Source: a virus (lineage: Duplodnaviria > Heunggongvirae > Uroviricota > Caudoviricetes). Taken from it: a stretch of DNA of 17,885 nt. The position numbers were made by a program, and so were the translations under genes. The stretch lies in the IMG/VR virus record IMGVR_UViG_2671180349_000004. The stretch is one strand, 5' to 3'. Each line of letters begins with the position of its first letter. The stretch's first letter is position 1. Of this stretch, positions 1-17,885 are shown piece after piece. Under the pieces are notes generated by a model. That model did not search any database. It was not told where the DNA came from and was given only the letters and a program-made list of their open reading frames with translations.

Positions 1-2740
<2,740 letters not shown>

Positions 2741-2762
2741 AGCGCGCATAAAACAGGCAAAA

Positions 2763-2782
2763 ACGGGATTTCAGAATCCCGT
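2763..2782. promoter_or_regulatory. 20-bp palindrome ACGGGATT-tcag-AATCCCGT (copy 2), 35 bp upstream of the parM-like start
   Basis: Same 8-bp arms as copy 1. Overlaps the expected -35 region of the parM-like promoter (AT-rich TAATTAAT block at 2789-2797 as a possible -10), consistent with an autoregulatory operator. Confidence 0.4.
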
Positions 2783-2816
2783 AAACGATTAATTAATCAA
2801 CATAAGGAAAAGCGAC

Positions 2817-3776
2817 ATGAAAATTTGTATCGATGACGGCTCCACCAACATCAAGCTGGCATGGACTGAGAACGGCGAACGCCGCAACGCCATCAGCCCG
2901 AACAGCTTCAAGTCGGAATGGTCTGCGCCGTTCGGTGGCACGCAGCCCGCGAACTACATGCTTGATGGCGTGCGCTATGGTTTTGATCCGGTCAGCGATC
3001 GCTTTGTCCAGACGACCGACACGCAATACCAGTACAGCGATGTGAATGTCATTGCCATTCATCACGCGCTGGTCAAATCAGGCATCACACCACAGGAAGT
3101 GGATGTGGTTGTCACCCTGCCACTGAGCGAATATTTCGACACAAACGCACAGCCGGACATGGCCAACATCAACCGCAAAAAAGCAAACGTCATGCGCCCG
3201 GTGGCGTACCAGAACGGAAAAGCATTCACTATCCGTAACGTACGGGTTATGCCTGAATCCATTCCGGCTGGTTTTAAAGCACTGGCTGACATGAGTCCGT
3301 TTGAATCCCTGCTGATTGTGGATTTAGGCGGAACCACGCTGGATGTGGCAAAGGTTCAGGGACAACTGGCAGGTATCAGCCAGGTGTTTTGCGATCCACA
3401 CGTAGGCGTTTCCCTGATGGCCGATGCCGTACTGTCGGTGATGGCCACTAACGGTATGCGCACCAGTCACCACATCGCCAATACCATTATCGAACATCGC
3501 CATGATGAAGCCTGGCTGCGCCAGCACATCCACAATGACGCGCATTACGCCAGCCTGATGGCGGTTATTCGTGAAAAGGAAGAAACACTGAAACAACGCG
3601 TGATCCGCGCGCTGGCGGTTTTTTCGGGTTACGGGCGGGTGATGGTTGTCGGTGGCGGGGCGGAGATTGTGGCACCCGCTATCCGCGAAGCCTGCGGAGT
3701 TAATGCGACTTTCATCGCGGACGGAGTGCCACAATTTGCTCTGGTTAATGGGCTGTACGCAATGAACAAGGAGTAA
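2817..3776 (+). CDS. parM: ParM/StbA-family actin-fold ATPase (type II partition cytomotive protein)
   Basis: 319 aa; RBS AAGGAAAA at 2804-2811. N-terminus MKICIDDGSTNIKLAW and blocks YSDVNVIAIHHAL, KKANVMRPV, VRVMPESIPAG, LLIVDLGGTTLDV, VGVSLM, RVMVVGGGAE, LVNGLY align with plasmid R1 ParM (MLVFIDDGSTNIKLQW..., recalled from memory). Actin-fold phosphate-1 (DDGST), phosphate-2 (DLGGTT) and adenosine (VGGGA) motifs are intact. Confidence 0.9.
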   Translation: MKICIDDGSTNIKLAWTENGERRNAISPNSFKSEWSAPFGGTQPANYMLDGVRYGFDPVSDRFVQTTDTQYQYSDVNVIAIHHALVKSGITPQEVDVVVTLPLSEYFDTNAQPDMANINRKKANVMRPVAYQNGKAFTIRNVRVMPESIPAGFKALADMSPFESLLIVDLGGTTLDVAKVQGQLAGISQVFCDPHVGVSLMADAVLSVMATNGMRTSHHIANTIIEHRHDEAWLRQHIHNDAHYASLMAVIREKEETLKQRVIRALAVFSGYGRVMVVGGGAEIVAPAIREACGVNATFIADGVPQFALVNGLYAMNKE

Positions 3777-3780
3777 ACCA

Positions 3781-4092
3781 ATGACGACACCAACCAGAAG
3801 AATAAGTTTCTATCTGAAGCCAGCTGCCGTCAAGAACGAAGGAGAAGCATGCGCCTGGCTGGACAGCCTTACACCAGAAGCCCGCAAAAGCGGCCAACGC
3901 GTGGCTTTTCTGGCCGGGCTGGCACTTCTGAAGACGAATCCGGCAGAGGCTTACCGACTGGCCGCATGGGCTGATGATGAGATGTTACCTGTGACACAAA
4001 TCAGCTCAAAAAAGTTTGAAGCACAGTCTGCACCAGTGGCTAAGATAACCAGCCAGATGGCTGGGAATATCCGGGCGTTATTTCCTGAGTAA
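3781..4092 (+). CDS. parR: ParR/StbB-like partition adaptor (probable ribbon-helix-helix DNA-binding protein)
   Basis: 103 aa, starts 5 nt after the parM stop, with RBS AAGGAG at 3768-3773. ISFYLKP...LDSLTPEARKSGQRVAFLAGLAL resembles R1 ParR IAFKLNP...LDSIPQGERSRLNRAALTAGLAL (recalled). Size and position immediately downstream of parM fit a parMR operon. Confidence 0.75.
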   Translation: MTTPTRRISFYLKPAAVKNEGEACAWLDSLTPEARKSGQRVAFLAGLALLKTNPAEAYRLAAWADDEMLPVTQISSKKFEAQSAPVAKITSQMAGNIRALFPE

Positions 4093-4107
4093 AAGCATCT
4101 GCGCGAA

Positions 4108-4149
4108 AAATGCTCACGTTTATAGAGAAAATGCTCACGTTTATAGAGA
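4108..4149. repeat. Perfect tandem duplication of a 21-bp unit AAATGCTCACGTTTATAGAGA (2 copies)
   Basis: Read directly: 4108-4128 is identical to 4129-4149. Begins 16 bp after the parR stop. Confidence 0.95.
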
Positions 4150-4241
4150 CAGTATCATTCCATTTGGCACACTTACTTCAATAATCGATCTGTTAAACAA
4201 ATAGATTGTCTATTATCTATCGATTAAAACGATCAATTATC

Positions 4242-4269
4242 TTGACAGTAATGTGCCTTTTTGTAAGAT
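4242..4269 (+). promoter_or_regulatory. Candidate sigma70 promoter: -35 TTGACA (4242-4247), 16-bp spacer, -10 TAAGAT (4264-4269) preceded by TG
   Basis: Perfect -35 hexamer and a 4/6 match at -10, in an AT-rich block. The palindrome AATAGA-ttg-TCTATT at 4200-4214 lies about 30 bp upstream as a possible operator. Predicted transcription start near 4276-4278. Confidence 0.45.
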
Positions 4270-4276
4270 CGTTCGC

Positions 4277-4460
4277 ATTGTGAGCGACAAGATAATTGCG
4301 CGGCATTGTCCATGCAAAACGCCCCAATAGCAGCAACTATTGGTGCGTAAAACTCGGTCGGACTCACTTAACCTGATATGCGTGCCTTCCGAAGTAAATC
4401 AAAATGTGCGTCGTATATTTTATTGCTTACACGCACCTCTGTAAAGGCACGCATATTTTT
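4277..4460 (+). ncRNA. Candidate structured 5' leader or small RNA (about 185 nt) ending in a terminator-like stem plus U-tract
   Basis: Hairpin CCAATAG-cagcaa-CTATTGG at 4324-4343. A 13-bp perfect inverted repeat ATATGCGTGCCTT (4376-4388) / AAGGCACGCATAT (4444-4456) encloses a 55-nt segment with an inner GTGCGT/ACGCAC pairing (4406-4411 / 4431-4436) and is followed by TTTT (4457-4460). The RBS and start of the downstream ORF follow within 20 nt. Confidence 0.3.
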
Positions 4461-4477
4461 CCTATGAGGTAAATAAA

Positions 4478-4747
4478 GTGCGGGCTAAAACAGGTATTTG
4501 CAAGAACCCTCATCGTTATAATCCAACATTTCTGTCTCTCCCTGAATATCAAGGACAAGAAGGTCGGCACAAATGCGCTGCCTGTGCTTTTGAGCTAGGC
4601 ATAAAAGATGCGCTTGAAGGACGCGCTATGGCTCAGAATGATTTAGTTTTAGCTAACATTCCGTTTAGCCAGGCTGGAACTGTAAGGCACAGAGATGCCT
4701 ATGAAGCATATGTTCGTGGTTGGCGATTAATACACAGCAACAATTGA
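4478..4747 (+). CDS. Hypothetical small protein (89 aa), possible Cys/His metal-binding motif
   Basis: GTG start at 4478 with RBS GAGGT at 4466-4470. C8-x3-H12 ... H31-x-C33-x2-C36 arrangement. Followed 10 nt downstream by a strong intrinsic terminator. No family recognised from memory. Confidence 0.5.
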   Translation: MRAKTGICKNPHRYNPTFLSLPEYQGQEGRHKCAACAFELGIKDALEGRAMAQNDLVLANIPFSQAGTVRHRDAYEAYVRGWRLIHSNN

Positions 4748-4756
4748 TACTTTTGA

Positions 4757-4779
4757 AGCGCCGATAAGGCGCTTTTTTT
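4757..4779 (+). terminator. Rho-independent terminator: stem AGCGCC / GGCGCT, loop GATAA, then seven T
   Basis: Read directly: 4757-4762 pairs with 4768-4773, followed by a T-run to 4779. Lies 10 nt after the stop of the 89-aa ORF. Confidence 0.75.
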
Positions 4780-5061
4780 GTTTGCACGATAGTGCACAAG
4801 TTTGCACAATTTTTTTGAACGACTTTTTGTACTTCCGGCCCGCGTGGTGGCTGGATCCGTCAAGGATCCGTACGTGCACAAAAAAACGCGTTTTTTCTGC
4901 GCGCAGGTGACGGGGGAACAGCCCGCGTTTCAGGGGGTAAATAGCATTCCCTGAACGATGTCGCAGAGATACAACAGAATGGCCGTATTTCTCACGCTGA
5001 GCGTGAAAAATACGTGAGGGATTCTGGTTTGATGGGGTGAAAGGTAAGGCCGTCAAAATCG

Positions 5062-5233: not shown

Positions 5234-6280
5234 TCAGGATGTGGGCTGGGTATCTAACAGTGCGTAAGGGTTAAAGCGGATCACCTCTTCGCCAAGCCAG
5301 TCATTGATGTGCTTCATGGCCTCCATGACGGGCATCAGCTCGTTAATTGCGTAAACCCGCGCGGCCTTCTCCACATCACCAAACGCACTTTTTTCGCCCG
5401 GCATCGCCCCCATCAGTTGCGGCGGAACGCGGTGCGCAGCCAGCACATCATCACGGGATGCCGCCTTAACATTCATGAACTCATCCTTTGCGGTGATCTG
5501 CTGGAACGGCAAAATTTGCACCCCCTCTTTGCCCCCGTTGGGCGCATGAATGAGCACGTTTTTAAACGCACCACCACCACGTGCCCCCTGTAGCGTTTCT
5601 TTCAGGGAGTCCATGCTTTCGCGGTTTACCTGCGCTGCACCGATGTAGATGATGCACCCGGCGTGGGATCCGTTGTCGTAATACAGTTTTCTGAACATGT
5701 CCGCCGAATGAGACAGGCTGGCCGAGAGTAATGCGCCAAGATATTCCGGCATGCCGTAAATTTCCTGGTTAATGTCCGGATTCATCAGGTGGCACACTTT
5801 GCCAGGGCGAAACTGAAACGCGTCCTTGCCATCCTGCACATACCACCATGATTCAAGATCGCTTCCGCGTCGCACGTATTTCGCCAGTGCGTGCCGTAAT
5901 TTAAGTGGTTCGCCGAGCATATTACTCCGAAGCTCAAGGAATGCGTTACCGAACACAAACCAGTCCAGCGCCAGCGCCGAGAAATCCTGCCGGGAAAGCA
6001 GCGGGTGCGGGATGTAGCAACCGAGCAATACATTGCGCTTAAAGTAAAGCGCAGACTGATGCCAGGACGTTTGCCGGGCGGCTCTTGCCAGACCGTACCA
6101 GTCCACCGGGGTTTCATACCACCGCCCGTTATCAGCACAGTACATATTGTCCAGCAGGTCATGCCCGGTCAGGCGATAAGGACCATCAAATGTGAATGCA
6201 CTGAGCGATGATTCTTTCCTGAGCGCATCAGCGAGATCAATGCGTGAACTCATGCGCACTTTTTTATTTTTTCTGCTCAT
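5234..6280 (-). CDS. Q: Portal (capsid portal vertex) protein gpQ
   Basis: 348 aa, size as P2 Q (about 344 aa). Its start codon overlaps the stop of upstream P (ATGA at 6278-6282, minus strand). Position between cos and P matches P2 synteny. Family assigned by size, synteny and general resemblance. Confidence 0.85.
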   Translation of the reverse strand: MSRKNKKVRMSSRIDLADALRKESSLSAFTFDGPYRLTGHDLLDNMYCADNGRWYETPVDWYGLARAARQTSWHQSALYFKRNVLLGCYIPHPLLSRQDFSALALDWFVFGNAFLELRSNMLGEPLKLRHALAKYVRRGSDLESWWYVQDGKDAFQFRPGKVCHLMNPDINQEIYGMPEYLGALLSASLSHSADMFRKLYYDNGSHAGCIIYIGAAQVNRESMDSLKETLQGARGGGAFKNVLIHAPNGGKEGVQILPFQQITAKDEFMNVKAASRDDVLAAHRVPPQLMGAMPGEKSAFGDVEKAARVYAINELMPVMEAMKHINDWLGEEVIRFNPYALLDTQPTS

Positions 6281-8031
6281 CAGAACTCCATAACCGTGAA
6301 ACGCTCGTTTTCTCCTTCGCCGCCAATTGGTTCGTTAATGACAGCAAGCATGGTTGCCCACGCAAGGTCGCCGTGGCTGATCCCCCTCGCGCGGTCCGTT
6401 TCGTAAGTGATAAAGCCGCCCGGTGTTTTCACCTTACGCACGGCGTTAAAGGCCGCGACCAGCTCGCGTTCGGCGCGATCGTATTCCCACCGTCCGGCAC
6501 GCATTATTTGCAGCATTTTCAGTACCAGCGACCGTTTGGATGACAGCGTGAAGGTGTACGGAATAGCAGCAGGGAAAAACCGCTTCACTATCTGATAAAC
6601 AGCCTCCCCGTTCCCGCCCGTCACATCAATGCCGATGTGTTCCACGTTGTAGCGACACGTGAACTCTTCAATGACTCTGGCCTGTTCTTCAAACTCCAGC
6701 CCCTGAACGCGTCGCGTCTCCACCGTTCGAAAACGGCCACCAGGAACAGCCGGAGGAACCACCACGGACACAGCGCCGCTGTCGCCGTTGCCACTGCTGC
6801 CGTTTGCGTCATACCCAATCCATACCGGACGATTCCCCATCGGGCGGGGAGCAAAAGGTTTCCAGTCTTTCCAGTCGTCGTATCCGTCAACACCGCAGCC
6901 AATCAGGATATTCAGGTTAAATGCCGATTCCCCTTCGCGGACAAACTCACACTTATAGAGATTGAGGAACTCGTCTTCGGTGTTTTCATCACGAATTTCG
7001 TCGATATCGGTGTGTTTCCAGCCGTGATTAACCACATCTTCCAGCGTGACAATTTGCCGCCACGTCCGGTCAGGGCAGATAAGCCCGTTATGCAGCGTTT
7101 TCCAGTCAACAGAAAAACGCTGGCGTTTATGCGTGGCCTTTTTCTCGTTCCAGCGGTCGCCGTTCCAGTAGGCGTATGCCTCGTGCGTTTCGGTGGATGG
7201 CGTGGAGAAGTAGGTGCGCCGCAGTCCGCTGAGGGTTGCCATAGCGCCAGCCACCTTGCGCAGTTCAGCAAAGCGACTGACCCAGAAAAATTCATCAAAA
7301 TAAAAATTGCCCGTGTAGGACTGTGCCGTCGCAGCAGAAGTACCAAGAAAATGCAGCTCTGCGCCGTTGGAGAGGATGATTTTATCGCCCCCTTTCAGCT
7401 CCACATCAACTTCAGATGCAGCCTTCTGAATAATGCTTTTAAACTGGAACGCCTGACGACGCGACGCAGACAAAAAAATCTGGTTACGCTGGTAAGGTTG
7501 CGCCACATCGTCACGCAGCGCCATCAGCAGTGCTTCCTGTGCAAAATACCATGTCGCTCCAATCTGTCGGGATTTCAGGATCATCCTGTTACGTATCCCG
7601 GCTTCCCTGCAAAGGGTCAGAGAGTCAAACCAGCCCCGCTGATGCCACTCCAGCCTGCTGATGATTTTTTCCCGCAGTGCGGCAATCTGTTCCGGCGTGA
7701 AATGATTTTTGAGTTTTTTCGCCCGGCTTTTCTTTCCTGTGGCCGTCGCATCCGGCTGGCCATCATGCAGTTTTTTAAGCTGCCGAGTCAGCAGGTCTAT
7801 TTCCTTGAAGTCACCACCTGTTTTATTCTGTTTTTCAGTAAGCTGGATGAGGCGCGCATCGATGGACTGCGTGACACGCTGCACGGGTGGTGTTTCATCC
7901 CACTGGTCGCGTTTTTTCCACGCATAAATCGTGTTCGGGTTTATTCCCATCAGACGTGATATTTCTGCGGGCGGATAACCCTGCCAGTAAAGTTGCCGCG
8001 CACGCTGGCGCACAAAAGCGTCCTGAATCAT
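6280..8031 (-). CDS. P: Terminase large (ATPase) subunit gpP
   Basis: 583 aa (P2 P is about 590 aa). Transcribed divergently from O, as in P2. Start ATG at 8029-8031 (complement) with a G-rich RBS upstream. Confidence 0.85.
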   Translation of the reverse strand: MIQDAFVRQRARQLYWQGYPPAEISRLMGINPNTIYAWKKRDQWDETPPVQRVTQSIDARLIQLTEKQNKTGGDFKEIDLLTRQLKKLHDGQPDATATGKKSRAKKLKNHFTPEQIAALREKIISRLEWHQRGWFDSLTLCREAGIRNRMILKSRQIGATWYFAQEALLMALRDDVAQPYQRNQIFLSASRRQAFQFKSIIQKAASEVDVELKGGDKIILSNGAELHFLGTSAATAQSYTGNFYFDEFFWVSRFAELRKVAGAMATLSGLRRTYFSTPSTETHEAYAYWNGDRWNEKKATHKRQRFSVDWKTLHNGLICPDRTWRQIVTLEDVVNHGWKHTDIDEIRDENTEDEFLNLYKCEFVREGESAFNLNILIGCGVDGYDDWKDWKPFAPRPMGNRPVWIGYDANGSSGNGDSGAVSVVVPPAVPGGRFRTVETRRVQGLEFEEQARVIEEFTCRYNVEHIGIDVTGGNGEAVYQIVKRFFPAAIPYTFTLSSKRSLVLKMLQIMRAGRWEYDRAERELVAAFNAVRKVKTPGGFITYETDRARGISHGDLAWATMLAVINEPIGGEGENERFTVMEF

Positions 8032-8185
8032 TGCTCCCCCTGAGTAATTACAGGAAGATTACCCGCGCGCGAAACCGTTCTCCTTAACCCCCTGTTCTGG
8101 CCGTTTTCTTACAACAAAAGCCCTTTGTATCAGCCTGTTACGCTTTGCCATCATGACTGAAGAACCAGTCAGAGGGGCAAAAACT
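8032..8185. promoter_or_regulatory. Divergent late-promoter region between P and O (expected Ogr/Delta-activated promoters)
   Basis: By synteny this 154-bp spacer must hold the divergent late promoters. Only an imperfect dyad TGTTCT...ACAACA (8093-8116) is visible; the TGT-N12-ACA spacing described for P2 late promoters is not matched exactly. Confidence 0.3.
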
Positions 8186-9022
8186 ATGACTAATGAAAAA
8201 AAGACATCCCGCAAAAAGTTTCGCGTGGCTGTCTCCGGTGTGACGGCAGACGGGCGCGAAATCAACGGCGACATGCTGAAAGCTGCCGCCACCAGTTATA
8301 ACCCGTCCGTTTATGGTGCACGTGTGAATATTGAGCACATCCTGTCACCACTCCCCGGCAGCGAGTTTTCCGCTATGGGCGATGTTGTGGGGTTGAGCAC
8401 CGAAGACATAACCGATGGCCCGCTGGCAGGCCGCACGGCACTGTATGCCGAAATTGAGCCGACCGCTCGCATGATGTCCCTGCTTAACGATGGTAAAAAA
8501 ATTTACTCCAGTATTGAGCTGGAACCACAGTCAACCATCACGGGAGGCCCTTACCTGCGCGGGCTGGCAATGACCGACACCCCCGCCAGCCTGGGCACGG
8601 AACGTCTGGCCTTTGCGGCACAACAACGTATGCAACTGATGACATTCAACTGTCAGCAGGGAGACGTGGCGATGTTTACCGCCGCTATGGAGTCAGAACT
8701 TATCGAACTCACCGAACAACGTCAGGAAGAAGGCACCCAGTGGTTTAACCGCGTTATGGGGATTATTGGCCGTGGCCGCAAAGCGGATGACGCCAGTTTC
8801 TCCCGTATTCAGGAAGCGGTGGAAGGTGTCGCAACATCACAGGCCGACATTATCGACCGTTTTAATGCACTGGAAACCCACCATCAGCAGGACAGCCAGA
8901 AAATCACTTCGCTGACCACAGAGCTGACAGCACTGAAGGAAAAACTGCGCACGCAGGACGGCGATCCGCAGAACCGGTTCACCGCAACGGGCGCAGCCTC
9001 CGACCAGCTGGCTGACTTCTGA
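8186..9022 (+). CDS. O: Capsid scaffolding protein gpO
   Basis: Start placed at ATG 8186 (MTNEKKTSRKKFRV...) with RBS AGAGGGG at 8171-8177; the ATG at 8153 given by the ORF track has no RBS. RVNIEHI, LRGLAMTDTPASLGTE and the C-terminal coiled-coil resemble P2 O (RINLEHL, LVGLAVTDDPASLGTE, recalled). Confidence 0.85.
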   Translation: MTNEKKTSRKKFRVAVSGVTADGREINGDMLKAAATSYNPSVYGARVNIEHILSPLPGSEFSAMGDVVGLSTEDITDGPLAGRTALYAEIEPTARMMSLLNDGKKIYSSIELEPQSTITGGPYLRGLAMTDTPASLGTERLAFAAQQRMQLMTFNCQQGDVAMFTAAMESELIELTEQRQEEGTQWFNRVMGIIGRGRKADDASFSRIQEAVEGVATSQADIIDRFNALETHHQQDSQKITSLTTELTALKEKLRTQDGDPQNRFTATGAASDQLADF

Positions 9023-14671: not shown

Positions 14672-15018
14672 CAACCCGCTACACAGGAATGAACCCGGAC
14701 GGGACGGGAAACCTGAACGATATGGAGCACCTGAAACAGTCAGTCAGGGACATCCTGACCACCCCGCTGGCAAGCCGGGTTATGCGACGGGAATATGGCA
14801 GCCTTTTGCCTGATTTGATTGACGAACCCATGAATAACACCACGCGTCTGCAATGCATGAGTGCTGCCGTGATTGCACTGACACGATGGGAACCCCGCAT
14901 TGCCCTGGACGCCATCGACGTTGTCTGGAAGGCAGGAGGCCGCGCCGGGGTGACGCTGTCGGGCACTGTCATGCAGACCATGCAGAATGTTGAATTAACC
15001 ATCACGCTGAGGGAGTAA
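14668..15018 (+). CDS. W: Baseplate wedge protein gpW (GPW/gp25 family)
   Basis: GTG start with RBS AGGAG at 14656-14660. MTTRYTGMNPDG...SRVMRREYGSLL matches P2 W MTARYLGMNRSDG...SRVMRRDYGSLL (recalled). Confidence 0.85.
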   Translation: MTTRYTGMNPDGTGNLNDMEHLKQSVRDILTTPLASRVMRREYGSLLPDLIDEPMNNTTRLQCMSAAVIALTRWEPRIALDAIDVVWKAGGRAGVTLSGTVMQTMQNVELTITLRE

Positions 15019-15021
15019 ATC

Positions 15022-15918
15022 ATGCCCGCCGTTGACCTTTCCCAGTTACCGGAACCCGCCATCATCGCGGAGCCTGACTTTGAAGCAATTCTGGCTGACA
15101 CAAAAGCCATGATGATTGCGTCCTATCCCGCCGAACAGCGTGAAGCCGTTTCCGCCGCGCTGGAGCTGGAATCGGAACCCCTTAACGTTATCGCCCAGAC
15201 AACAGCGTTTCGTGAAATGCTGTTACGCCAGCGGGTCAATGAGGGTGCACGCGCCTGCATGTTAAGCCACAGCGCCGGGACAGACCTGGACAACCTCGCG
15301 GGCAATATGAACACAAAGCGCCTGGTTATCACTCCGGCAACGGATACCACCGACGCGGTGATGGAGAGCGACACCTCGCTTAGACTGCGGGCGCAGCGGG
15401 CGTACGACGGCCTGAGTGTTGCTGGCCCGTCAGGTGCATACGAGTATTTTGCCCGCAGCGCCAGCGGTCTGGTGCGTGATGCGCGGGCTATCAGTCCGTC
15501 TCCGGCCAATGTGACGGTTTCCATCCTGTCCACTGAAGGCGACGGCACAGCAACGGAGGCGTTGCTTAATACCGTTCGCGCCGTTCTGAATGCAGAGGAT
15601 ACCCGCCCGGTGGCCGACCGCCTGACGGTACAGAGCGCCAGAATCGTGACATGGCGGCTGAATGCAAAACTGTACTTTTACCCCGGCCCGGAATCCGAAC
15701 CTATTCTGGCCGCAGCTGAATCGTCGTTCAGGAAGTGGCTGGCTGAGCAGGGGCTTATCGGTCAGGACGTGGCGTTGTCCGCCATTGCTGCCGCACTGCA
15801 TGTGCACGGTGTGCAACGCGTGGAGATAATCGAACCCACACAGAATATGGCCATCAGCGACATACAGGCGGCGCGCTGTGAGTCATTCACCATCAGCGAA
15901 GGTGGGCGTAATGAGTAA
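15022..15918 (+). CDS. J: Baseplate assembly protein gpJ
   Basis: 298 aa. LSQLPEP, ESEPL, RQRVNE, VAGPSGAYEYFARSA, SPSPANVTVSILS, RPVADRLTVQSA, YFYPGPESEPI, LHVHGVQRVE align with P2 J as recalled. Confidence 0.9.
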   Translation: MPAVDLSQLPEPAIIAEPDFEAILADTKAMMIASYPAEQREAVSAALELESEPLNVIAQTTAFREMLLRQRVNEGARACMLSHSAGTDLDNLAGNMNTKRLVITPATDTTDAVMESDTSLRLRAQRAYDGLSVAGPSGAYEYFARSASGLVRDARAISPSPANVTVSILSTEGDGTATEALLNTVRAVLNAEDTRPVADRLTVQSARIVTWRLNAKLYFYPGPESEPILAAAESSFRKWLAEQGLIGQDVALSAIAAALHVHGVQRVEIIEPTQNMAISDIQAARCESFTISEGGRNE

Positions 15919-16441
15919 TTCACTGTTACCGCCATCAGCCAGCAATTTCATGCGTTGCGCCGAAGCTGTCGGAGCGCGCATTACAGACATCCCGGTAGAC
16001 CTCAACACGCTGTGGTCACCGGACACCTGCCCGGTGCATCTGCTGCCTTATCTCGCCTGGGCATTTTCCGTTGACCGCTGGGATCGCAACTGGCCGGAAG
16101 AGACAAAGCGACAGGTGATTCGTGATGCATGGCTGATACACCGACACAAAGGAACCATCAGCGCACTGCGCCGGGCCATTGAGCCGCTGGGATACCTCAT
16201 TCGCGTGTCTGAGTGGTGGGAGTTCGGCGGAGAACCGGGAACATTTACCGTTGAAGTCGGCACGCTGGACAGTGGCGTGACGGAGGAAATGTATCTGGAA
16301 ATGGAGCGGTTGATTGCTGATGCCCGCCCGGTCAGCCGCCACATGACAGGGCTGAATATCATTCAGGAAATTCCGGGGGATATTTTCGCGGCGGCAGCAA
16401 CTTACGACGGTGAAGTCATTACCATTTATCCGGACGATTAA
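15911..16441 (+). CDS. I: Baseplate protein gpI
   Basis: ATG 15911 overlaps the J stop (ATGAGTAA). LLPYLAWAFSVDRWD, HKGTI, EPLGYLI, EWWE, GEPGTF, MYLEMERLIADARPVSRH match P2 I as recalled. Confidence 0.85.
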   Translation: MSNSLLPPSASNFMRCAEAVGARITDIPVDLNTLWSPDTCPVHLLPYLAWAFSVDRWDRNWPEETKRQVIRDAWLIHRHKGTISALRRAIEPLGYLIRVSEWWEFGGEPGTFTVEVGTLDSGVTEEMYLEMERLIADARPVSRHMTGLNIIQEIPGDIFAAAATYDGEVITIYPDD

Positions 16442-16443
16442 GC

Positions 16444-17885
16444 ATGAGTACCACAACACGAAAATTTAAAACCGTTATCACCGATACGGGTGAAAAAAAA
16501 TTAGCGCAGGCAGCCACACCAGATGGTAAACCGGTCCGCCTGACTCACATGGCCGTGGGTGACGGCGGCGGCACGTTGCCCTCGCCAGACAGTAAGCAGA
16601 CCCGTCTTGTGCATGAGGTGTGGCGACACACTGTTAATCGCGTCATCCTGGACGCAACACATCAGAACCGCATTATTGCAGAGCTGGTTATTCCTCCTGA
16701 AACGGGCGGATTCTGGATCCGGGAAATTGGTGTATTTGATGAGCACGGCGATTTAATCGCGGTGGGCAATACTGCCGAAAGTTACAAACCAACCGTTGCC
16801 GAAGGGTCCGGACGTGCACAAACATTTCGCACCATTCTGACCGTATCCAGCACGGCCACCGTGGCGCTTACCGTGGATAACACCATGGTGATGGCCACAG
16901 TGGATTACGTGGATGACAAACTGAAAGAGCATGAACAGTCACGACGTCACCCGGACGCCTCGCTGACTGCAAAAGGCTTTGTTCAACTCAGTAGCGCCAC
17001 CAACAGCACGTCTGAAGCACTGGCCGCAACGCCGAAAGCGGTCAAGGCAGCCTATGACCTTGCTAACGGGAAATATACCGCACAGGACGCCACTACAGCG
17101 CGGAAAGGACTTGTCCAGCTCAGTAGCGCCACCAACAGCGATTCAGAAACGCTGGCGGCAACACCAATGGCGGTAAAGGCAGCATATGACCTTGCTAACG
17201 GGAAATATACTGCGCAGGATGCCACCACAGCGCGGAAAGGCCTTGTCCAGCTCAGTAGCGCCACCAACAGCACGTCTGAAACGCTGGCGGCAACGCCAAA
17301 GTCGGTAAAGGCAGCCTATGACCTTGCTAACGGGAAATATACCGCTCAGGACGCTACGACAGCACAAAAAGGAATTGTCCAGCTAAGCAGCGCGACTAAC
17401 AGCGCATCTGAAACGCTTGCTGCGACACCGAAAGCAGTGAAAGCAGCTAATGACAATGCGAATGGTCGGGTACCTTCTGCCCGTAAGGTGAATGGTAAGG
17501 CGCTTTCAGCGGATATAACACTGACACCGAAAGATATTGGTACGCTTAACTCAACAACAATGTCATTCAGAGGTGGTGCTGGTTGGTTCAAATTAGCAAC
17601 GGTAACCATGCCACAGGCGAGTTCTGTTGTTTCAATTACGTTGATTGGTGGCGCTGGATATAACGTCGGTTCACCTCAACAGGCAGGTATATCTGAAATT
17701 GTTTTGCGTGCAGGTAATGGTAATCCGAAGGGGATTACTGGTGCTTTATGGCAGCGCACATCGGCAGGGTTTACAAATTTTGCCTGGGTCAATACATCTG
17801 GTGATACTTACGATATTTACGTTGCAATCGGAAATTATGCGACTGGTGTAAATATTCAATGGGATTATACCAGTAATGCCAGCGT
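16444..17885 (+). CDS. H: Tail fibre protein gpH, 5' partial (runs off the window end)
   Basis: ATG 16444, 3 nt after the I stop. The frame is open to the window end (480 codons, translated by hand). Contains 44-aa tandem repeats of the phage tail-fibre repeat type (QLSSATNS...ETLAATPKAVK...AYDLANGKYTAQDATTA). Not in the ORF track because no stop lies within the window. Confidence 0.85.
   Translation, partial: MSTTTRKFKTVITDTGEKKLAQAATPDGKPVRLTHMAVGDGGGTLPSPDSKQTRLVHEVWRHTVNRVILDATHQNRIIAELVIPPETGGFWIREIGVFDEHGDLIAVGNTAESYKPTVAEGSGRAQTFRTILTVSSTATVALTVDNTMVMATVDYVDDKLKEHEQSRRHPDASLTAKGFVQLSSATNSTSEALAATPKAVKAAYDLANGKYTAQDATTARKGLVQLSSATNSDSETLAATPMAVKAAYDLANGKYTAQDATTARKGLVQLSSATNSTSETLAATPKSVKAAYDLANGKYTAQDATTAQKGIVQLSSATNSASETLAATPKAVKAANDNANGRVPSARKVNGKALSADITLTPKDIGTLNSTTMSFRGGAGWFKLATVTMPQASSVVSITLIGGAGYNVGSPQQAGISEIVLRAGNGNPKGITGALWQRTSAGFTNFAWVNTSGDTYDIYVAIGNYATGVNIQWDYTSNAS
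16972..17460 (+). repeat. Tandem 132-nt (44-codon) repeats inside tail fibre H: three full copies (16972-17367) and a diverged partial fourth
   Basis: Read directly: unit starts at 16972, 17104, 17236 and 17368 (AAAGG...GTCCAGCTCAGTAGCGCCACCAACAGC...). These repeats create the spurious antisense ORFs at 17052-17609. Confidence 0.9.

Follow-up and report, generated by a model that had tools for sequence, protein, structure and literature searches.

Introduction

Phage tail fibres of the gpH, Stf and gp37 type dock on the baseplate through their N-terminus, while a shaft and a knob extend the fibre. Once trimerised with the assistance of Tfa, their tip, composed of a collar, a needle and a head, attaches to LPS or a porin.

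For phage P2, the fibre protein gpH and its chaperone gpG have been described (Haggard-Ljungquist, Halling and Calendar, 1992, as cited in PMC3945230). In the same source, the exchange of distal segments of H, stf and gp37 among unrelated phages is presented as well-documented (Montag, 1989; Haggard-Ljungquist, 1992; Sandmeier, 1992). A family of T4- and lambda-type tips with an adjacent chaperone has also been reported (Magaziner and Salmond, 2022; PMC9659904), and this study cites residues 907-996 or 932-965 of gp37 as responsible for receptor specificity.

Here, the 5' part of a tail fibre gene H, located at the end of a viral DNA stretch of 17,885 nucleotides (the window), is compared with these systems. 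The initial annotation of this locus had claimed that the distal part of H drops in GC content from position 17460 onwards and that it is likely to be a horizontally exchanged receptor-binding module. The segment 17460-17885 very probably represents the first part of an exchangeable distal half in a P2-family H gene, with a history unlike that of the backbone, because three independent tests point in this direction: a shift in composition, discordant nearest relatives and a sharp step in sequence identity.

Gene H and its prophage

According to its list of open reading frames, the window carries gene A, a parM-like gene, Q and P on the minus strand, followed by O, N, M, L, the lysis genes, R, S, V, W, J, I and H. 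Its best whole-region matches are P2-family E. coli prophages, at 97% identity over 8.9 kb. Because of this gene order and these matches, the window can be assigned, on sequence grounds, to a P2-type prophage (Peduoviridae, Xuanwuvirus-like). Between the replication gene A and the late genes (2817-4092), it also contains genes for a ParM-like protein (319 aa) and for a protein of the 'plasmid partitioning/stability family' (103 aa), both named after the annotation of a near-identical relative, which is unusual cargo for an integrated phage.

Gene H begins with an ATG at 16444 on the plus strand and stays open to the end of the window at 17885 (1,442 bases, 480 codons in translation). It directly follows gene I and the V-W-J-I baseplate genes, the position it occupies in the P2 late operon, as seen both in the window and in the annotation of loci that are 97-99% identical. 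The closest allele, 99.6% identical, is found in E. coli strains 165 and MS6193 and has a full length of 2,112 bases (703 aa). Relatives of H are annotated as 'phage tail protein' (WP_069067388.1), and the protein is thus already in RefSeq. The prophage carrying this closest allele is defective, a deletion having fused two of its genes, N (capsid) and I (tail) (positions 8024-8998 of locus L001 and 2524-3498 of locus L009). Unlike the prophage of strains 165 and MS6193, the window contains the full late operon.

Domain organization of the fibre protein

The N-terminal baseplate-attachment domain (16459-16902, plus strand; aa 6-153) was identified as Phage_tail_fib (Pfam PF12571) with an E-value of 1.3e-53 and a score of 181 bits against a cut-off of 23. 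In 60-base bins, it is 88-100% identical to the H gene of the Xuanwuvirus phage 503458, but only 28-50% identical, that is at background level, to lambdoid and P1-like stf genes. This domain is the backbone-specific part of H.

It is followed by shaft repeats (16972-17454, plus strand), detected by TRF as 3.7 copies of a 132-base (44-aa) unit with 83% matches at period 132. These repeats correspond to four stretches of the Pfam family Phage_fiber_2 (PF03406; E=2e-75), from aa ~173-178 to ~340, and the S protein of phage Mu (PDB 5YVQ) aligns to the last repeat and the linker (aa 294-350, E=2e-8). According to these alignments, the repeat array is the conserved shaft common to P2 H, lambdoid Stf and the S proteins of Mu and P1.

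The low-GC segment (17460-17885, plus strand) spans a linker (aa 340-365) followed by the larger part of a predicted all-beta domain of ~135 residues (aa ~366-500), ~115 of which lie inside the window, with ~60 bases extending past its end. A Pfam scan of the 703-aa allele found no family between aa 341 and 515, a PDB sequence search with the in-window part of the domain gave no match even at E<=10, and an Rfam scan of the window returned no match. A protein homology search retrieved mostly short partial proteins, as fibre genes break assemblies, and alignment depth was limited. The AlphaFold (AF2) model of the in-window domain shows an all-beta core with a mean pLDDT of 57.6; in the core, the means of 10-residue blocks range from 43 to 89, mostly 57-89, with one segment below 50 (residues 101-111). 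In Foldseek searches, this model had weak matches among gp37-type fibres and the N-terminal regions of tailspikes, in both cases to beta-sandwich domains (TM-scores 0.3-0.58). The low-GC domain is thereby predicted to be all-beta and fibre-associated, the model being of moderate quality and supporting no further use, and it may form a beta-sandwich shaft or knob. Regarding the receptor-binding role originally claimed, the exchange of a distal fibre module is well supported, but the piece inside the window consists of the linker and this beta-sandwich domain and not of the tip. As had been correctly recognized, the window ends inside the module, with the tip and the chaperone gene outside; both are seen only in near-identical alleles.

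Base composition along gene H

Sliding GC and codon-position analyses confirmed the drop in the distal part of H. Total GC falls from 0.541 (16444-17459) to 0.448 (17460-17885), and GC1, GC2 and GC3, which are 0.583, 0.506 and 0.533 in proximal H, become 0.475, 0.539 and 0.326 in distal H. Since GC2 is level while GC3 and GC1 are lower, the drop sits in synonymous positions and not in the amino-acid make-up of the protein; amino-acid composition as its cause was ruled out on the basis of the unchanged GC2. In the other 16 genes, GC3 amounts to 0.635 +/- 0.051 with a minimum of 0.518 (2,639 windows of 141 codons; range of whole genes, 0.51-0.71). At ~6 sd under this backbone mean, distal H deviates in composition as a mosaic segment does. 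Proximal H had been described as GC-rich, which does not hold: its GC of 0.54 is close to the window mean of 0.551 and its GC3 lies at the low end of the backbone genes.

Among all 426-base windows, 3.7% are equally AT-rich, and the remaining ones all fall in one unrelated stretch, with starts at 3856-4475. This second low-GC stretch (3856-4900, up to 5230; GC 0.41-0.43) is flanked by the partition-like gene (3781-4092) and the portal gene Q (5234-6280, minus strand). It contains no ORF of more than 89 aa within 4100-4700 and has no Rfam match. The same 1.1 kb occurs in 166 E. coli genomes, and strain 165 has genes for HTH and PIN-domain proteins there instead. The stretch looks like the variable cargo hotspot beside cos.

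The low GC3 is a property of the module in its other hosts as well. In homologous copies of the domain, GC3 is 0.33-0.36 in lambdoid, P2-like and P1-like phages, 0.42 in phi458 and 0.15 in the T-even phage Sf24. Similarly, GC3 in P2 H, 503458 H and lambdoid stf is in each case lower in the distal half of the gene than in the corresponding backbone, and the module (0.33-0.36) is also below the lambdoid backbone (e.g. 0.50-0.85 in gpJ). Along the full-length allele, GC3 is back at 0.5-0.6 in the collar region (aa ~500-600), with lower values again in the needle and the head. The simplest reading of these values is a pool of distal modules moving among phage families of differing base composition and equilibrated with none of them. 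AT-rich T-even-like phages may be the ultimate source of the low GC.

Discordant relatives of the proximal and distal halves

Near matches of H in the phage collection all end at query positions 868-1018, i.e. at 17311-17461 of the window, and separate searches with the two halves, as the initial annotation had proposed, gave different nearest relatives. Proximal H is 89-91% identical to its counterparts in Xuanwuvirus phages and 80-82% identical to those in P2, Wphi and Yersinia P2-like phages, its nearest relatives being P2-family H genes only. The distal 431 bases match the stf gene of the P1-like phage JL22 at 92%, phages phi458, CMS-2020a and Cyrano at 77-78%, the Yersinia phages vB_YpM_5, _6 and _39 (37-49 kb) at 78-79%, and the ST64B, SSU5-like and T-even gp37 genes at 67-69%. 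At the protein level, the distal part matches 296 phage records, including many Tequatrovirus gp37 and Felix-O1-like fibres at 40-57% amino-acid identity. Against lambdoid stf genes, distal H reaches 97-98% DNA identity. Such a split, with P2-family relatives on the proximal side and lambdoid, P1-like, T-even and other relatives on the distal side, is another mark of a mosaic segment.

These observations bear on the simplest alternative, in which no transfer took place and the AT-richer stretch of a vertically inherited gene reflects a local constraint of the domain, either its amino-acid make-up or slow-translation codons for trimer folding. The lower GC3 that several fibre genes (P2 H, 503458 H and lambdoid stf) share in their distal halves could in principle result from a common selective pressure. 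However, GC2 is level and only GC3 and GC1 decrease, P2-family relatives lose all similarity exactly here, and the genes matched at 97-98% DNA identity belong to lambdoid prophages that are unrelated in the rest of their genes. Vertical descent under local constraint is contradicted by the split in nearest relatives and by the abrupt change in identity at 17284, and is extremely improbable.

The distribution of both halves was determined across 5,426 complete genomes of E. coli, a piece being counted as present when at least 80% of it was covered. The distal part was found in 1,344 genomes (1,249 records at 95-99% identity) and the proximal part in 503, with both parts joined as the whole H fragment in 77; the 8.9-kb late-gene backbone occurs in 891. 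In an evenly spaced sample of the distal records, about three quarters correspond to lambdoid genes of the 'prophage tail fiber N-terminal domain' type, and the one lambdoid context inspected comprises gpJ, Lom, Stf (971 aa) and Tfa. The 77 genomes with full-length matches carry the same recombinant allele and provide no independent relative. Neither of the outcomes named beforehand as incompatible with exchange was thus encountered, since GC is not uniform and H has no single independent closest relative over its whole length.

A further scenario is that the module is native to the P2-like lineage, from which lambdoid and P1-like phages acquired it, the window then representing the donor. The identity tract itself is silent on direction, and the module GC3 is below that of the lambdoid backbone too. 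Against a P2-like donor, the module is joined to the proximal part in at most 77 of the 1,344 genomes, at least ~1,267 of them having other contexts, mostly lambdoid. Furthermore, most of the 891 backbone genomes do not have the full-length H of the 77 and so carry other distal parts, and the module GC3 is 6 sd under the P2-like backbone. Donation by the P2-like lineage is accordingly unlikely, and acquisition of the module by this lineage is the preferred direction.

A junction within the shaft repeats

The third line of evidence comes from the comparison with lambdoid stf. A lambdoid-like tract, 97% identical to the stf gene of O157:H7 prophages, extends from 17284 to 17885 (plus strand), and the identity step at 17283/17284 lies inside repeat 3. 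The number of mismatches goes from 37 in 171 bases (17113-17283) to 17 in 602 bases (17284-17885; Fisher p=3e-14), i.e. from 78% identity before to 97% after the step, a sharp breakpoint of the kind that delimits a mosaic segment. Per bin, identity to the lambdoid SS52 stf rises at 17284 from 73-80% to 92-100%, and identity to JL22 stf reaches more than 90% at ~17535-17584. Conversely, identity to 503458 H is 80-87% per 60-base bin in the repeats and at background from ~17284-17344, and identity to P2 H is 73-93% through the repeats and at background (30-48% per 60-base bin) from 17464. The step at 17283/17284 appears to be the most recent exchange junction. This places the start of the module ~180 bases upstream of position 17460, where it had initially been set.

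The composition boundary is found elsewhere. Sliding GC3 begins dropping at ~17350-17430, and a two-segment likelihood analysis of 15000-17885 placed the change point at 17513. Because the repeats keep a normal GC (0.53-0.57) in every context compared, the composition step occurs 150-200 bases downstream of the homology junction. Since the two boundaries differ in place (~17430-17513 and 17284), GC alone would misplace the junction; in practice, GC-based boundaries trail the true recombination junction by ~180 bases.

P2-like alleles lose similarity at 17180-17196, 17288-17333 or 17443-17461, which correspond to the same point in successive repeats. Such a one-period spacing is expected if alleles vary in repeat number and diverge after the last repeat. 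End points separated by one repeat period also indicate that the conserved repeats constitute the shared homology joining proximal and distal halves, and the repeat array is the favoured candidate for the recombination substrate. At a finer scale, repeat 4 contains at 17385-17397 five synonymous third-position differences within 13 bases relative to the strain-165 allele. In this patch, the window has the version of the P2-like allele of PV15 and strain 165 that of lambdoid stf, a pattern suggestive of micro-mosaicism or gene conversion.

Alternatively, the exchange could have been performed by a site-specific DNA invertase of the Cin/Gin/Pin/Min type, acting at crossover sites in fibre genes. 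This mechanism has been proposed for stf-type genes (section 16 of PMC3945230, citing Sandmeier), and JL22, 503458 and phi458 have oppositely oriented alternative fibre/chaperone genes, or a Pin invertase, beside their fibre genes. However, no match to the 26-base crossover consensus was found in the window with up to 3 mismatches allowed, on which ground crossover by an invertase was rejected as the exchange mechanism, and no invertase gene or inverted alternative segment is present downstream in near-identical loci. The locus thus does not show the combination of crossover site and invertase that defines the invertase-switched fibre class (Mu G, P1 C, p15B Min). In addition, the identity step falls inside a 132-base repeat which offers ordinary homology, and the involvement of an invertase is highly improbable. 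Given these negative results for the crossover site in the window and for an invertase gene in near-identical loci, homologous recombination in the repeats is favoured on the 5' side; on the 3' side, homologous recombination in or beyond tfa is favoured.

Tip, chaperone and head in near-identical alleles

Beyond the window, the 703-aa allele contains a Pfam Collar domain (PF07484) at aa 516-563, and the tip of T4 gp37 (PDB 2XGF) matches aa 499-703, including the His-x-His needle (E=1.2e-73). The gene following H in the 99.6% identical allele encodes a Caudo_TAP tail-fibre assembly protein, a chaperone of the Tfa type. In coordinates extended along this allele, the tract of high identity with lambdoid phages, JL22 and PV15 reaches ~18267-18298. 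It is followed by a hypervariable segment of ~100-130 bases (~18268-18403; 10825-10960 of L001), where each of the three drops to 35-48% identity per bin between flanks that are 85-100% identical; past this segment, identity is again 83-98% to the end of H and tfa. According to the 2XGF alignment, the hypervariable segment would fall in the receptor-specificity part of gp37.

The tip of the 99.6% allele is presumably also that of the window, although the P2-like PV15, whose allele is 97% identical, has another head segment together with an extra macro-domain gene. In database fragments, three or more different C-terminal tips follow the low-GC domain, which indicates that the distal half is itself mosaic.

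Additional genes were noticed beside the fibre locus. In a relative, a family-9 glycosyltransferase gene with a GC of ~0.30 follows tfa (11806-12984 of L001), and in O157:H7 PV15-279, the macro-domain gene lies between H and tfa and is accompanied by a serine O-acetyltransferase gene (6157-7059 and 7690-8262 of locus L003). These cargo genes are possible surface-modifying or superinfection-exclusion genes.

The Pfam-less low-GC domain (aa ~366-500; 17536 to ~17945) might even be an independently mobile cassette and not a passive piece of the shaft. This idea, which is rather doubtful, is based on the junctions on both sides and the three or more tips in database fragments, as well as on the occurrence of the domain in virulent phages (T-even and Felix-O1-like) and in temperate ones (P2-, lambda-, P1- and ST64B-type). 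If it were correct, the domain could have a function of its own, e.g. secondary binding of surface glycans, a suggestion derived from the resemblance of its modelled fold to domains that precede tailspike depolymerases.

Proposed history and implications

Collectively, these data point to a modular fibre, in which a baseplate-docking N-terminus (aa 6-153) would be followed by four 44-aa repeats (aa ~178-340) and a beta-sandwich domain (aa ~366-500). Past the window, the protein would continue with a gp37-type collar, a His-x-His needle and a hypervariable receptor-binding head, folded with the help of the downstream Tfa. Lambdoid and P1-like temperate phages of E. coli share this distal DNA at 92-98% identity, and its low GC3 would have been brought along from this shared pool of distal modules. 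Homologous recombination within the 132-base repeats probably linked the module to a P2-type proximal part, with a junction at ~17283/17284. Such a swap would alter host range while leaving the baseplate interface untouched.

Tail-fibre mosaicism in this gene H is ordinary, already known biology, and nothing departs from the known picture. The case matters little beyond annotation, but it is a clean and quantifiable example of modular exchange in fibres. It implies that predictions of the host range of the prophage should rely on the distal module and the hypervariable head, and not on the P2-like backbone. The repeat junction also represents a natural splice point for the engineering of chimeric fibres.

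Comparison with known systems

The S proteins of Mu and P1 (5YVQ) resemble the H protein in the last Phage_fiber_2 repeat and the linker, and the P1-like JL22 has the same distal module at 92%. Unlike Mu and P1 S, whose variable part is invertible, H has no crossover site in the window and no invertible segment in near-identical loci.

Similarity to T4 gp37 (2XGF) concerns aa 499-703 of the full-length allele, where it covers the collar, the needle and the C-terminal strands, with divergence concentrated at the gp37 specificity residues (PMC9659904). The domain inside the window shares 45-55% amino-acid identity with gp37 of T-even phages, and the same range applies to Felix-O1-like fibres. 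The two systems differ in their chaperone, which is here of the lambda-Tfa type (Caudo_TAP), and in their composition, with a GC3 of 0.33 against 0.15 in the T-even homologue.

The lambdoid Stf and Tfa of E. coli O157:H7 (e.g. SS52, WP_000279120.1) share 97% identity from 17284 to ~18298 in extended coordinates and 83-98% through the gene end and tfa, with the same beta-sandwich domain, collar and needle. However, the N-terminal two thirds of lambdoid Stf ('prophage tail fiber N-terminal domain') are unrelated, the hypervariable head of ~100 bases differs, and the protein is borne on a siphovirus tail, with gpJ and Lom as neighbours.

The distal half of P2 gpH is unrelated to that of the window, whose H has four repeats. 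P2 gpH is nevertheless alike in its gene position after I, in its Phage_tail_fib domain and Phage_fiber_2 repeats, and in its DNA, which is 78-82% identical up to 17459. Both genes follow the same principle, with a conserved proximal part, an exchangeable distal part and then a chaperone gene.
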